From sequence record PZ445517.1: a stretch of DNA of 64,000 nucleotides. One strand, given 5' to 3'. The notes under the pieces were generated by a model. The model had not been told where the DNA came from and made no database searches. It saw only the letters and a list, made by a program, of their open reading frames with translations. Position 1 is the stretch's first letter; the number at the start of each line of letters is the position of its first letter. Position numbers and translations under genes: made by a program. Positions 16,314 through 21,026 of this stretch are shown here, piece after piece. Source of the DNA: a phage.

Positions 16314-16596
16314 GAGAAATAATTCCTTGGTAAGCCCAATAAGGAGGATTAACAGAATCCTCACCAGAGTTTTCTTCAGGAAAATAAACCTGGATAACAA
16401 ATCCAGACGCATCAAAGGTAAAATAAACCGTAGGTAGTTCACCTAACAATTCGGCACGAGTATTAATTTCTTCGAGATCTCGTTCACGTCCAGCCCAAAA
16501 ACTAGGATTTAGACTACATTCGTAAAAATAATAGTCATTACCGAACATATCAAAACCCTTCCAACTCTCTACCACATACCGCTCAAAACTAATCAT
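16285..16596 (-). CDS. hypothetical protein
   Basis: 103 aa ORF. Confidence 0.5.
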   Translation of the reverse strand: MISFERYVVESWKGFDMFGNDYYFYECSLNPSFWAGRERDLEEINTRAELLGELPTVYFTFDASGFVIQVYFPEENSGEDSVNPPYWAYQGIISRGTKLELKE

Positions 16597-16598
16597 AA

Positions 16599-16814
16599 TT
16601 AAGCCTTTTTATCAAGAACAGAATTCAGTTTGTTAGTAATTTTATCCAGACGCTCATTAAACTCACTAGAAGATAAGCCCTTTTCTGGAGAAATTAAACT
16701 AATAACGAAAAATATAGCAATAAAAGGAATAAGGAAAATAGCTCCAACTGCCATAAACAGAAAGAATGTTACAGTTGTAAGAAAATCAGCTAAACCTTTA
16801 CGAAATTTATACAT
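16599..16814 (-). CDS. small membrane protein
   Basis: 71 aa with central hydrophobic helix. Confidence 0.5.
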   Translation of the reverse strand: MYKFRKGLADFLTTVTFFLFMAVGAIFLIPFIAIFFVISLISPEKGLSSSEFNERLDKITNKLNSVLDKKA

Positions 16815-16929
16815 ATTTTACCCTTAATTAATTAACAAAGCATTGATAAGTACTAAACTATATTGGGAATAAAATTCTGGACCAAAATGAAAAATCATAT
16901 CATTTATAGTATCCATAATGCAATTCAAT

Positions 16930-17400
16930 TTAATCATGTTTCCACACCCCATCGGTATTTGACCAAAGTCGCTGATTATCTGATCCTCGCCACAGCTTTT
17001 TAGTCGGAAGATTTTTCTCATACTTCCCATCAATAATAACATCAACATATTTAAGCATTTCTAGTTGTTTAATATCTTCAAACTTATATCCTGTCCACAA
17101 CCAAATGCTTTTATTGGGATAAAGATTTTTAATAGTTTGAACCACAGAGTGAATCACGTCTCTGTTATCAGGATAAAGAGGGTCACCTCCGGTTATAGTC
17201 AATCCTTCTATATAATCATTATTCAAACATTCAATTAATTGTTCTAGTGTTTCACCAGTGAATGGAACACCATTTCTAGCATTCCATGTTGATTTATTAT
17301 AACACCCTTCGCATTTATGCAAACAACCCGTAACGAAAAGAACTGTCCTGCATCCAGGACCATTAACAAAGCAGCACGGGTATATTCTGTCATAATTCAT
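16930..17400 (-). CDS. nrdG: anaerobic ribonucleotide reductase activase NrdG (radical SAM)
   Basis: 156 aa, T4 NrdG length; CxxxCxxC motif (CLHKCEGC). Confidence 0.9.
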   Translation of the reverse strand: MNYDRIYPCCFVNGPGCRTVLFVTGCLHKCEGCYNKSTWNARNGVPFTGETLEQLIECLNNDYIEGLTITGGDPLYPDNRDVIHSVVQTIKNLYPNKSIWLWTGYKFEDIKQLEMLKYVDVIIDGKYEKNLPTKKLWRGSDNQRLWSNTDGVWKHD

Positions 17401-18229
17401 TTATATATTTCCAATTATAGCCTTCAACACTTTTACGTTCGCCATTTAAACATTTTAAAATATTTCCTTTGCTAGAAATATTAAAATATTTTGCTGCGTC
17501 TGGTATATAATTAAATGTTTTTAAAAGAACACCATCTTTATATGCGCCAAATAAATTAAGAGTATATTTTTCTCGAAGACGCTGATGTTTCCTTTTCATA
17601 ACCTCAGGATTTGCATACGCCAACTTCAATGAATTTCTGTGTTTTTCTTTTACTTCAGGTTTTTGCATTGCTAACTTAGTTAGCCTGGAAATTTTATTTC
17701 TAACTTCGTCAGTTTTCATTGCATTTGACAAATTTAATAAAGTTTTATTTCTAACTTCAGGTTTTTGCATTGCTAACTTAGTTAGTTCTCTATGTCTTTT
17801 TCTAAAATCGTCATCCTTCCATATATTTTTCGATAATTTTGACATAGAGCGGTGAAATAATTCCTTTTCACTGGAATACAATTTAAAAATTTCATCCAAT
17901 TCATCCGCATTAAATCTATCGGTATTCGAGTTTATCATTCTATGAAAGGCATAACACATTTTACTATTGCTTGTTTTAGCTAAATAGTAATGAGCTAACG
18001 CATGGTCATAATATGACAAATTAACAATATTCCATTTATCTGTTTTATATTCAGGAAATATAGATTTGGGAAGCACGTGATGTGCTTCCGTTTTTCCTTT
18101 TATTTTAGGATTATTATAATTTTTTGTTATCAAATCAACATATGACAATAGTAAATCATTATTTTCTTCAAATATTAAAGCTAATTTATCATTCACAAAA
18201 TCGCAAGGATAAAATCTATCATAATTCAT
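17390..18229 (-). CDS. HNH homing endonuclease, mobC-like, wedged between nrdD and nrdG
   Basis: EAHHVLPKS HNH motif, repeated KLAMQKPEV NUMOD-like modules, C-terminal GYNWKY; ATG overlaps nrdD stop (ATGA); first 13 codons mimic the nrdG start. Confidence 0.75.
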   Translation of the reverse strand: MNYDRFYPCDFVNDKLALIFEENNDLLLSYVDLITKNYNNPKIKGKTEAHHVLPKSIFPEYKTDKWNIVNLSYYDHALAHYYLAKTSNSKMCYAFHRMINSNTDRFNADELDEIFKLYSSEKELFHRSMSKLSKNIWKDDDFRKRHRELTKLAMQKPEVRNKTLLNLSNAMKTDEVRNKISRLTKLAMQKPEVKEKHRNSLKLAYANPEVMKRKHQRLREKYTLNLFGAYKDGVLLKTFNYIPDAAKYFNISSKGNILKCLNGERKSVEGYNWKYINEL

Positions 18230-20043
18230 TGGTGTTTAACCCTATGCATGATTTCTTTATTTTTACCGAGATTAAATCCGCGTTCATTCGGATTTCCCAA
18301 ATAACCACATGTTCTTCTTATTGTGTTCATCTTTTTAGGATCAGTTTCTCCACAGATAGAACAAACAAATCCGTTTTCAGTAGGAGTCATTTCATGGGTA
18401 CTTCCGCATGTAAAACACTTATCTACTGGCATATTAACACCAAAATAATCTAAATGCTGTGCAGCATAATCCCACACGGCCTCAAGACCTTTTAAGTTAT
18501 TTTTCATATCTGGAAGTTCAACATAAGAAATGTGACCGCCGGTCGCTATGAAATGATAAGGCGCTTCACGAGAAATCTTTTCAAACGGAGTAATATTTTC
18601 TTCTACTGAAACATGGAAACTGTTAGTGTACCAGCCTTTATCGGTAACATCCTTTACACTTCCATATTTTTCTGTATCGAGTTTACAGAAGCGATAACAA
18701 AGGTTTTCAGCAGGAGTAGAATACAAGCTAAAAGCAAATCCAGTTCTTTCAGTCCACTGTTTAAGACGAGCATTCATTTTAGTTAAAATTTCTCGTCCAA
18801 TATCACGACCTACAAGAATATTCAATTCGTGAATACCAATGTATCCTAGAGACACTGAACTTCTGCCATTTTTAAATAACTCAATTATATCGTCATCAGG
18901 TTTAAGACGAACCCCGAATGCACCTTCTTGGTAAAGAATAGGAGCAACAGTCGCTTTAACTCCTTTTAAGGAACTAATTCTACACATCAAAGCTTCAAAA
19001 CACAAATCCATTCGTTCATTGAACAATTCAACAAATTTCTGTTCATTGAATTGTGTTCCAATATAAGAATCTAACGCGATACGAGGAAGATTCAGTGTTA
19101 CAACACCGAGATTATTACGTCCATCAAGAATTTCATTACCAGTCGAATCTTTCCATACACTCAAGAAACTACGGCAACCCATTGGAGAAACAGGAATAGA
19201 TGAACCGGTGATAGCTTTATTATTCTTAACTGAAATAATATCAGGATACATTCTTTTGCTTGCGCATTCTAGAGCGAGCTGCTTAATATCATAGTTCGGA
19301 TCGTCTTTATAAAGATTAACACCTTCTTCAACGAACATAACAAGCTTAGGGAAAATAGGAGTTATCCCATCACGGCCAAGACCTTTAATACGATTTTTCA
19401 GAATTGCTTTCTGAATCATTCGTTCAGTCCAGTCAGTTCCCGTACCAAACGTAATTGTTACAAAAGGCGTTTGTCCGTTTGAACTAAAGAGAGTATTTAC
19501 TTCATATTCATAAGCTTGGAATGCATCGTATACGTCTTTTTCTGTTTTAGATTGGGCGTAATTCAACGCATCAGCGATTTGCCATTTTTCTGCGTCCTCA
19601 ATATGTTTTGCATAGGTGCGTTTAACATAAGGAGAAAGTACTTTATCTACATTCGCAAAAGTCGTTCCGCCATATTGATGAGAAGCAACCTGTGCAGTAA
19701 TTTGTGCCATAATTGCAGTAGCAACGCCGATTGATTTAGGAGTTTCAATCTGTGCATTACCGAGCTTAAATCCGTTCTCAAGCATTCCTTTTAAATCTAC
19801 TAAACAGCAATTAGTAAATGGAAGAGCAGGGGAATAATCAATATCATGGAAATGGATAATTCCGCTTTCATGCGCTTTCATAATAAAAGACGGGACCATA
19901 TTTTTGGCAATGTGTTTAGACACAATACCAGCCATAAGGTCCCGTTGAGTTGGAAAAACACGAGAATCTTTATTAGCATTCTCGTTTAAAAGGTCTTTAT
20001 TAGTTTTATGAATCAATCCTTCAATTTCTTTTTCAATTGTCAT
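18226..20043 (-). CDS. nrdD: anaerobic ribonucleoside-triphosphate reductase NrdD (glycyl radical enzyme), uninterrupted
   Basis: 605 aa continuous ORF; glycyl radical motif RTCGYLG near C-terminus; no intron. Confidence 0.93.
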   Translation of the reverse strand: MTIEKEIEGLIHKTNKDLLNENANKDSRVFPTQRDLMAGIVSKHIAKNMVPSFIMKAHESGIIHFHDIDYSPALPFTNCCLVDLKGMLENGFKLGNAQIETPKSIGVATAIMAQITAQVASHQYGGTTFANVDKVLSPYVKRTYAKHIEDAEKWQIADALNYAQSKTEKDVYDAFQAYEYEVNTLFSSNGQTPFVTITFGTGTDWTERMIQKAILKNRIKGLGRDGITPIFPKLVMFVEEGVNLYKDDPNYDIKQLALECASKRMYPDIISVKNNKAITGSSIPVSPMGCRSFLSVWKDSTGNEILDGRNNLGVVTLNLPRIALDSYIGTQFNEQKFVELFNERMDLCFEALMCRISSLKGVKATVAPILYQEGAFGVRLKPDDDIIELFKNGRSSVSLGYIGIHELNILVGRDIGREILTKMNARLKQWTERTGFAFSLYSTPAENLCYRFCKLDTEKYGSVKDVTDKGWYTNSFHVSVEENITPFEKISREAPYHFIATGGHISYVELPDMKNNLKGLEAVWDYAAQHLDYFGVNMPVDKCFTCGSTHEMTPTENGFVCSICGETDPKKMNTIRRTCGYLGNPNERGFNLGKNKEIMHRVKHQ

Positions 20044-20513
20044 TTTAAACTCTTTCTAAGCTGCTTCTTAAATGAAGCTATTAATTGTGTTTTAGTGTCA
20101 GATTCATTATATTCAAATCCTCTTTGAAGCATCTCAGCCATCATTTCCTCTTTTCCTAAACGAGAAAATTCCTTTGATTTATCTCCAACGAAGTTAGGGT
20201 GAATATTATTTTGGGTGTAATCGGATTTTAAATAAGTAAGTAAATTTTCTAACCATTCAAGATAATCAACGCCTTGTCCCTTTAAGCCGGAACGATTAAA
20301 TTTGTGCTTCATTTGACCTTCCGCAGCATTGCAAAGATTACAGAGCAATCCACGTACCTTTCCTGCTTTTGGTCCATTTAATTCATGGTCATGGTCAAGG
20401 TGATTAGCTTGAACATCAGGATTTAGTTCTCGTTGGCAAATTAAGCATTTACCATTTTGTGCATTATAAAATTTTTGTTTTTCTTCTTTATATAATTTGC
20501 CAGTCAATAACAT
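20040..20513 (-). CDS. 49: endonuclease VII (Holliday junction resolvase) gp49
   Basis: 157 aa, T4 gp49 length; zinc-binding CxxC...CxxC and HLDHDHELNGPK His-Me finger. Confidence 0.9.
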   Translation of the reverse strand: MLLTGKLYKEEKQKFYNAQNGKCLICQRELNPDVQANHLDHDHELNGPKAGKVRGLLCNLCNAAEGQMKHKFNRSGLKGQGVDYLEWLENLLTYLKSDYTQNNIHPNFVGDKSKEFSRLGKEEMMAEMLQRGFEYNESDTKTQLIASFKKQLRKSLK

Positions 20514-20561
20514 AATAAAACCCTTACCTTAAATAGATAAGGGTATTTATTATTTCAAGTA

Positions 20562-21026
20562 TTAAAACGCTCGGTCAGAAAAAGAAATTTGAGTTTCAAG
20601 CCATTCAATATATTCTGCCGCGGCTTGCATTAAATTTCCTTCATAACCATCGTTATTTTCTTGTGCAGCTAATTTAGCTAATGCATATGAAATGCGTTCA
20701 CCTTGAAAAGCGGCTTTAGGTTTATGAATAACTTGATCAACTCGTTCTACGACCTCTTCAATTTCGCCATTTTCTACTGATTCAGTATTCCACAAGCACC
20801 AATACGTAATTGGCTTATCGTAGATGTTAATAATCTTTCCATCAGAAAGTTCAATTTCAATAATTCCAGTATCAGGTTCTATATCATCTTCGCATTCTTT
20901 TGCAAGTTCACGAACTTTAAAGACAGTACCTGCACTAAGTTCCGGCCAATAATTACACAGCCCTTTATCAGCACGATTAATTCTAAACCACTTATCTACT
21001 GTAATCATGCCCCATCTCCATATCAA
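20562..21026 (-). CDS. hypothetical protein (pin position)
   Basis: 154 aa ORF downstream of 49; identity with Pin not verifiable. Confidence 0.5.
   Translation of the reverse strand: MIWRWGMITVDKWFRINRADKGLCNYWPELSAGTVFKVRELAKECEDDIEPDTGIIEIELSDGKIINIYDKPITYWCLWNTESVENGEIEEVVERVDQVIHKPKAAFQGERISYALAKLAAQENNDGYEGNLMQAAAEYIEWLETQISFSDRAF

Follow-up and report, generated by a model that had tools for sequence, protein, structure and literature searches.

A putative HNH endonuclease cassette at the nrdD/nrdG junction of T4-like phages appears to borrow the start of nrdG and to supply a re-coded replacement for it

The subject of this analysis is an open reading frame (ORF) for an HNH homing endonuclease that lies between nrdD and nrdG, the genes for the large subunit and the activase of the anaerobic ribonucleotide reductase, in a stretch of phage DNA of 64,000 nucleotides (nt) from sequence record PZ445517.1, referred to as a whole as the window (Table 1). 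This region of the window was found to be 100% identical to Escherichia phage T4_ev240 (LR597657). Both reductase genes were found to be complete ORFs: the nrdD product matched the Pfam model NRDD at 1.9e-171 over the whole profile (1-562), together with Gly_radical, and a scan of positions 16500-20600 against Rfam matched no family and hence no group I intron, in keeping with a first-pass annotation of the window that had described nrdD as an uninterrupted ORF of 605 codons. The 279-amino-acid (aa) product of the ORF between them matched phrog_655 ('homing endonuclease', 7e-37) and phrog_12434 ('HNH endonuclease', 7e-15), and the gene appears to be a free-standing endonuclease of the HNH ('Mob') type of T4-like phages, placed outside any intron or intein.

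The endonuclease ORF overlaps both of its neighbours, as the first-pass annotation had noted. Its ATG shares the sequence ATGA with the nrdD stop, and in endonuclease-free genomes (DalCa and many metagenomic loci, where caATGA is followed by nrdG) the same ATGA is the native overlap of the nrdD stop with the nrdG start. At the other end, the endonuclease TGA (17392-17390) is the last triplet of ATGAATTATGA, within the first 11 nt of nrdG, with the nrdG start codon 8 nt upstream of the endonuclease stop codon, a geometry that appears to be one of termination and reinitiation. The first 13 codons of the endonuclease were confirmed to be a duplicate of the first 13 codons of nrdG, the two 39-nt segments agreeing at 30/39 nt and 11/13 aa. 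Their ATG-to-ATG distance is 829 base pairs (bp), and the 840 bp previously given for this spacing is the length of the ORF. A repeat search returned the same pair unprompted (a 41-nt direct repeat, 78% identical, spacing 829, family D2), and of 200,000 pairs of 39-mers drawn at random from the window none agreed at as many as 30/39 nt.

Junctions with and without the endonuclease were compared, as the first-pass annotation had proposed, by searching with a nrdD/nrdG junction probe, which matched 837 phage records, and by measuring the span in a spread of 60 of these. The endonuclease was found to be a patchy element, with about 32 carriers among the approximately 837 records with the locus (22 records from phages of E. 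coli, Shigella, Salmonella and Yersinia, with the gene in the same place at 95% protein identity or more, and 10 Klebsiella phage records) and more than 570 records with an empty junction. The nrdD-nrdG span took five values in the 60 records, namely empty, +829 (HNH), +823 (SegH), +622 (T4 MobC) and +638 (mosaics), and the span of carriers less that of endonuclease-free genomes was 1900-1071 = 829. In empty genomes nrdG begins on the nrdD stop, the junction reading caATGAATTATGATAGATTTTATCCTTGCGATTTTGT(T/G)AAT and then GGxCCTGG. The duplication was present, with an identical junction, in 9/9 of the carriers inspected, a second phage genus included, so that its absence from related carriers, which the first-pass annotation had named as a refutation, was not seen. 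These data support the earlier proposal that the gene entered nrdG within its first codons and that the segment which it entered was duplicated.

The same alleles showed which of the two copies is the native one. Upstream, the 39 nt of the window matched the endonuclease-free metagenomic loci L048, L050, L054, L055 and L057 at 39/39 and DalCa at 38/39; the upstream copy of TB004, Ec_MI-02 and ZJUN4 is another variant, identical (39/39) to that of the endonuclease-free locus L056, and the copy of PST and BF15 is a third, identical to that of DalCa. The downstream copy was 29-31/39 identical to local empty alleles, and the nrdG start of every inspected carrier was of this diverged form, with Cys rather than Asp at residue 10. 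The duplication inferred by the first-pass annotation therefore stood, but its polarity did not: the copy in front of the endonuclease is the undiverged resident (38-39/39) and the copy heading nrdG is the foreign, re-coded one. The endonuclease N-terminus thus appears to be the resident nrdG start, and the downstream copy appears to be foreign and to travel together with the endonuclease body from codon 14. Searches of IMG/VR returned only empty junctions and no match to a degenerate Cys10 pattern, and a metagenome scan gave ten nrdD/nrdG junctions, all empty, plus one distant relative (L047) and no carrier.

The carriers of the second genus, Jiaodavirus phages of Klebsiella (Roth67, UTI-K1 and SmallBear), encode an endonuclease 86% identical in protein to that of the window. 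Local Klebsiella-phage nrdG starts with MNFDRIYPSDFVN (as in the endonuclease-free KP179 and KpV477), and in Roth67 and SmallBear it is the endonuclease that starts with MNFDRIYPSDFVN, its first 39 nt matching the KP179 nrdG start at 39/39 before the protein continues DKLSSIFEDD... The nrdG of the Klebsiella carriers starts with MNYDRIYPCCFVN, residues 3, 9 and 10 of which are foreign to the nrdG of Klebsiella phages. Between the genera the downstream copy was found to have 6 synonymous and 0 non-synonymous differences, giving the same 13 residues, and nrdG past codon 13 was of the local type in each genus. The cassette is 829 nt long in the window and 826 nt in the Klebsiella phages. The unit that moves, or is at least shared, would thus run from endonuclease codon 14 to replacement nrdG codon 13, with the leading 13 codons belonging to the recipient genome.

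Comparison of the window with Roth67 gave 84.8% nt identity for the endonuclease body (synonymous divergence, pS, 0.51), 73% for nrdD (pS 0.705) and 68.6% for nrdG past codon 13 (pS 0.647), with a pS of 0.787 for gene 49; these figures fit transfer of the cassette after the genera split but are indecisive. Relative to its Klebsiella-phage orthologue the endonuclease had a ratio of non-synonymous to synonymous divergence (pN/pS) of 0.13 overall, rising to 0.23 in codons 14-45, and a single indel that keeps the frame. Purifying selection thus acts on the gene from codon 14 on, which argues for a working protein in both lineages.

Table 1. Features at the nrdD/nrdG junction of the window, with their positions and the basis of each assignment.
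Feature	Position	Strand	Basis
gene 49 (endonuclease VII)	20040-20513	minus	ORF list
nrdD, anaerobic ribonucleotide reductase large subunit, 605 aa, uninterrupted	18226-20043	minus	ORF list, Pfam
HNH homing-endonuclease ORF, 279 aa (840 nt)	17390-18229	minus	ORF list, PHROG
nrdG, anaerobic reductase activase, 156 aa, intact	16930-17400	minus	Pfam Fer4_12 9e-49, Radical_SAM
ATGA overlap, nrdD stop / endonuclease start	18226-18229	minus	ATG 18229-18227, TGA 18228-18226, context caATGA
ATGAATTATGA, nrdG start / endonuclease stop overlap, first 11 nt of nrdG	17390-17400	minus	sequence
Upstream resident-type copy of nrdG codons 1-13 (MNYDRFYPCDFVN), endonuclease codons 1-13	18191-18229	minus	39-mer comparison
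Downstream replacement copy of nrdG codons 1-13 (MNYDRIYPCCFVN), apparently cassette-borne	17362-17400	minus	39-mer comparison
Re-coded tract, nrdG nt 12-30, including Asp10 to Cys (GAT to TGC at 17371-17373)	17371-17389	minus	alignment
Putative mobile cassette, 829 nt, endonuclease codon 14 to replacement nrdG codon 13	17362-18190	minus	allele comparison
HNH catalytic core (GKTEAHHVLPKSIFPEY...WNIVNLSYYDHALAHYYLA)	17978-18097	minus	alignment to T4 MobC HNH core
Helical repeat region resembling NUMOD3	17564-17848	minus	internal DNA repeats (families D1, D3); no Pfam model above threshold
C-terminal domain resembling NUMOD1 / I-HmuI, ending GYNWKYINEL	17396-17548	minus	sub-threshold Pfam
6-bp inverted repeat GTCCTGgatgCAGGAC, nrdG nt 41-56, directly 3' of the insertion point	17345-17360	minus	terminator-like match

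The differences between the downstream copy and empty alleles were found to be concentrated in nrdG nt 12-30, where five scattered, mostly synonymous changes accompany GAT to TGC, which replaces Asp10 by Cys; one of the five, Phe6/Ile, is variable among empty alleles too. Asp10 was present in every inspected empty nrdG, including distant ones starting with MNFDRIYNMDVVNG, with a U5-type allele as the sole exception. A 41-nt probe for the tract matched 78 phage records, in 75 of which the tract has an endonuclease beside it; among the 60 matches listed an endonuclease gene adjoins it almost everywhere, this being the window-type HNH gene, SegH (the T6 tract matches that of the window at 41/41) or, in a few mosaic genomes, a T4-type MobC. 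An empty junction with the Cys10 tract was found in 3 of approximately 576 (U5, partial record AY262145; ESh24; ERS-1), the other approximately 570 being about 90% identical to the probe, which is the wild-type pattern. The alleles of U5 (empty Cys10 junction at 2490-2565 of L042), ESh24 and ERS-1 are as expected from loss of the endonuclease by crossover in the shared first 11 nt and could possibly represent an 'empty but immune' site. With the re-coding, the two repeats share no identical stretch longer than 11 nt, which should reduce deletion between them.

The protein itself displays the HNH pattern H-H...N...H...H (EAHHVLP...WNIVNL...DHALAH), with H50, H51, N67, H76 and H80 invariant in 9 homologues; in Pfam no HNH model was matched by the endonuclease, and NCBIfam gave spurious low matches only. 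The predicted structure shows the C-terminal half as helical repeats, at low confidence, and residues 1-8 are likewise of low confidence. A 42-nt direct repeat, 90% identical (17642-17683 and 17744-17785), encodes LTKLAMQKPEV twice, and a metagenomic variant of 242 aa (P0002) is without one repeat unit, which points to a variable copy number of the DNA-binding repeats. Searches of the protein database gave 8 relatives in total. The nearest relative of the window endonuclease is a gene annotated 'mobD' between 46.1 and 46 in KIT03-like phages (36% identity), with homology from about codon 14. Distant homologues in VR7 and DK-13 lie at another locus, between 49.3 and 49.1, and are uninformative on the nrdD/nrdG site.

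Other nucleases occupy the same junction. T4 MobC (NC_000866, 42906-43538) is also an HNH protein whose ATG overlaps the nrdD stop; its first 7 codons, MNYDRIY, repeat the nrdG start, its stop lies in the same 11-nt ATGAATTATGA overlap as that of the window endonuclease, and both proteins match phrog_655 and end GY.WKY..EL. The first-pass annotation had called the window gene 'mobC-like', which holds for position and broad family but not for orthology: the proteins differ in length (210 aa in T4 and 279 aa in the window), BLASTP aligned a single segment, 60 residues of the HNH core with 38% identity, and the fusion to nrdG follows codon 7 in T4 MobC but codon 13 in the window endonuclease. The window gene was accordingly rejected as an orthologue of T4 MobC, there being no full-length similarity and a different insertion point. 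T4 nrdG retains Asp10, and T4 MobC appears to be an independent in-phase fusion of the same design. Among the tblastn matches listed, T4 records were matched via mobD and not mobC, and in Yersinia phage PST the label 'mobC' reflects position.

In T6, RB3 and others the place of mobC is reportedly taken by SegH, a GIY-YIG enzyme (Sandegren et al. 2005, cited in PMC2988022). SegH was found to start with ATGCATAGG, which in endonuclease-free genomes are the nrdD codons Met-His-Arg (T6, L041 590-710; RB3, L034 860-1000), and a 16-nt insertion just upstream re-codes the nrdD C-terminus from GKNKEIMHRVKHQ-stop to GKMKEMVKRVKHA-stop (tail ...KMKEMVKRVKHA-stop). It thus resembles the window case in its junction, in an identical Cys10 tract, in the use of host-gene codons as a start and in a re-coded copy of the displaced gene end, but as a mirror image, being inserted about 24 nt upstream in the nrdD tail with the 3' end of the upstream gene as the re-coded piece; its stop overlaps the nrdG ATG by 4 nt as compared with 11 nt in the window. 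A DNA-binding region common to SegH and the window enzyme was considered and rejected, as BLASTP gave weak, repeat-level similarity (E = 0.14).

Mosaic junctions in 215Ecol030PP (L043 780-1580) and BEU50 (L035 880-1600) hold a SegH-type re-coded nrdD tail, a native tail, a T4-type MobC and a Cys10 nrdG, which suggests that at this hot spot one endonuclease gene has taken the place of another. In PD112 (L046 1260-1500) SegH has an in-frame internal deletion that leaves 81 aa, and in BF15 (L061 272-1112) the HNH gene is frameshifted, with a stop at codon 38. From these arrangements the junction looks like a hot spot of successive invasion, replacement and decay.

Taken together, the frame of the endonuclease is fused in phase to the recipient's nrdG initiation region (the ATGA overlap and codons 1-13), and the 3' end of the cassette restores a complete nrdG. 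We consider it probable, from the comparison of alleles, that an 829-bp startless HNH cassette entered between nrdG codons 13 and 14, capturing the recipient's start and supplying a re-coded spare, and that it spreads by intron-less homing. Coupled to the termination of nrdD, translation of the endonuclease would begin at the captured nrdG start and give a protein headed by NrdG residues 1-13 (MNYDRFYPCDFVN-DKLAL..., with the peptide MNYDRFYPCDFVNDK); ribosomes would then reinitiate 8 nt before the endonuclease stop codon to make NrdG. The captured start and the coupling are proposed because the ORF list holds no in-frame ATG between the borrowed start and the HNH motif, because the initiation context is the native one of nrdG, and because T4 MobC is fused in phase as well. 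In cassette-free genomes the enzyme is predicted to recognise the 5' end of wild-type nrdG where it runs unbroken through the insertion point, and to cut there or nearby, the cassette then being copied in by recombinational repair. The replacement copy would have to be re-coded (nt 12-30, including Asp10 to Cys): the upstream copy would present wild-type sequence on its left and endonuclease sequence on its right, the downstream copy altered sequence on its left and native sequence on its right, and neither would rebuild the target. The carrier would thereby be protected from self-cleavage and suffer fewer deletions between the repeats.

A wider picture, which we put forward tentatively as possible rather than probable, is that at least three unrelated or distantly related nucleases (the HNH enzyme, T4-type MobC and SegH) contest an arena of about 60 bp and have converged on insertion within the end codons of a gene of an essential pathway, with capture of a host start and a re-coded duplicate of the codons displaced, that the Cys10 tract is a portable immunity which survives alone in U5, ESh24 and ERS-1, and that the same cassette has crossed between Tequatrovirus and Jiaodavirus.

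Several observations weigh against the cassette model. The carrier junctions inspected were 9 of 32, including the second genus, and the insertion can be placed no more closely than nrdG nt 31-40, since the two copies share TTTGTKAATG. The DNA-binding domains scored below threshold in Pfam (PF22083 at 21.1 bits, cut-off 27; PF07453 at 17.3 bits, cut-off 22.8), and fold searches with the predicted structure gave nothing informative. RNA folding at the two starts was not distinctive, neither being more stable than shuffled controls, and so gave no evidence of a regulatory hairpin; the nrdG start of the carrier tended, if at all, to be unusually open (z = +2.3). Across genera the cassette exceeds the flanking genes in similarity only moderately (pS 0.51 as compared with 0.65-0.79), and each 13-codon segment offers only about 6 synonymous sites, so that arguments from timing are weak. 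T4 MobC is listed in the retrieved passages of PMC2988022 as not determined, with its target unknown. The Cys10 tract, moreover, is linked to SegH and T4-type MobC as well, and instead of conferring immunity to the HNH enzyme it may mark a different nuclease or a shared 3' junction.

That last point leads to the most serious rival, somewhat unlikely in our judgement, in which the tract marks resistance to, or co-conversion with, SegH or a previous occupant, the HNH cassette having merely arisen on such a background or recombined with it. The tract is 41/41 identical in SegH-bearing T6 and identical in many SegH phages, the SegH and HNH cassettes seem akin in the 20 or so nt that precede the nrdG ATG (AATTGGA.AT.AT..ATGA), and the mosaics join SegH-type nrdD tails, T4-type MobC and Cys10 nrdG. 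The three inspected Klebsiella carriers, however, have the tract with the HNH gene; apart from the latter, a 77-aa ORF is all that lies between their nrdD and nrdG, with no gene for SegH. The tract also lies 10-27 nt from the insertion point, in the region where a recognition sequence spanning the site ought to fall. As this rival touches the immunity step only, the architecture of the cassette is unaffected by it. Another rival would be old vertical inheritance, with empty genomes arising by repeated precise deletion between the 39-nt repeats, little or no present homing and an endonuclease that may be inactive or otherwise employed. The cross-genus divergence of the endonuclease (15% nt) is near the backbone values of some nrdG segments, frameshifted and internally deleted endonuclease genes exist, and the U5, ESh24 and ERS-1 junctions, with a wild-type nrdD tail and Cys10 nrdG but no endonuclease, would fit crossover in the shared 11 nt. 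Yet such deletion would mostly give Cys10 or chimeric alleles and the tract is in only 3 of the approximately 576 empty junctions; upstream copies that match several different co-circulating empty alleles at 39/39 call for ongoing exchange; strong purifying selection argues for continued function; and the synonymous divergence of the cassette is below that of the flanking genes. Vertical inheritance was therefore judged improbable.

It is also very improbable, in our view, that the upstream 39 nt are only a scar and that the endonuclease starts internally, at GTG codon 12 or TTG codons 28 or 33, although its first 13 residues are not conserved in paralogues, residues 1-8 are of low confidence in the predicted structure and the upstream copy, being local nrdG sequence, leaves the open frame as no independent evidence of translation. 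Beside the missing in-frame ATG, no Shine-Dalgarno-like sequence was seen before the GTG or TTG codons; T4 MobC is an independent case of in-phase fusion to nrdG, at a different codon; in paralogues about 20 residues precede the start of homology, so that an N-terminal extension is normal; and the borrowed ATG stands in a native nrdG context that must work in endonuclease-free phages. Direct repeats flanking an inserted gene might also recall a transposon with a target-site duplication, an explanation that is hardly credible here and was rejected: the repeats are 39 nt long with 9 differences and have different origins (one resident, one foreign), neither a transposase ORF nor terminal inverted repeats were found, and the protein is an HNH endonuclease of the phage Mob group. 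The startless cassette thus remains the preferred explanation for the anatomy of the junction.

Further features of the region were recorded alongside the endonuclease. A promoter scan gave 11 promoter-like sites where 11.1 were expected, which is the chance rate, and the sole notable feature was the small hairpin GTCCTGgatgCAGGAC. In 50 collected, related nrdG sequences its pair at nt 42/55 was C-G in 34, T-A in 10, T-G in 3 and mismatched in 3, the change being linked to a Thr19/Val19 polymorphism, and it could be either a conserved hairpin or merely two linked haplotypes. Jiaodavirus phages have an extra ORF of 72-77 aa between nrdD and nrdG (Roth67, L036 2296-2529; KP179, L038 1124-1342), which shares 29 nt with the start of nrdG or of the endonuclease but reads them in a different frame. 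Between nt 90 and 300, nrdG exists in two forms, the window type and the T4 type, which are about 63% identical, the T4 type being closer to the Klebsiella-phage genes (84%) than to those of other E. coli phages; nrdG itself thus appears to be mosaic across genera, possibly through co-conversion driven by the endonucleases.

The duplication has also left its mark on annotation, since it accounts for the endonuclease of UTI-K1 (L037 2003-2839) being annotated 'ribonucleotide reductase activating protein' and for nrdG being annotated from an internal start, 26 codons short, in RB3 (L034 1801-2193) and PD112 (L046 1579-1971). In the GenBank annotation of RB3, SegH is begun 88 nt too late and named segD.

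A clear precedent is offered by the mORFs or 'gene hybrids' of fungal mitochondria, in Allomyces atp6 and Glomus atp6, atp9, cox2 and nad3 (PMC3630166). As here, the endonuclease lies in phase within a host gene and brings foreign sequence in place of the end that it displaces; this foreign copy differs mostly synonymously, and the duplicate that agrees with element-free relatives is the native one. In mORFs, however, it is the C-terminal end that is replaced, with the native duplicate downstream and often unexpressed (PMC3630166), whereas in the window the N-terminal end is replaced and the native duplicate would serve as the translation start of the endonuclease. The enzymes are LAGLIDADG or GIY-YIG in mORFs and HNH here, and the hosts differ too. 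In phages, free-standing endonucleases such as SegF, SegG and MobE (intron-less homing) and the Aeh1 mobE 'genes in pieces' are described in the retrieved passages of PMC2988022 as promoter-less cassettes in nucleotide-metabolism operons, like the window element, some of them translationally coupled and with targets in conserved neighbours; unlike it, the cases described there lie between genes or split a gene into two polypeptides. Those passages do not mention capture of a neighbour's start or a re-coded nrdG duplicate, and a prior description elsewhere is possible.

That the locus is the classical mobC/segH site was already known, and about 30 GenBank genomes already label the ORF a homing endonuclease. 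The comparison contributes the precise anatomy: a startless mobile unit must land in phase behind a host start and would pay with a re-coded spare, the diverged duplicate being explained by the replacement copy that such a unit supplies. For a nuclease not yet characterised, this anatomy points to a definite candidate target and to a naturally occurring allele that would be resistant. The movement of phage homing endonucleases across genus boundaries was called unproven in a 2012 paper (PMC3468402), and the window element is a case that bears on it. The 'replacement gene end' strategy of fungal mitochondria would then also operate in phages, at the opposite end of the gene.

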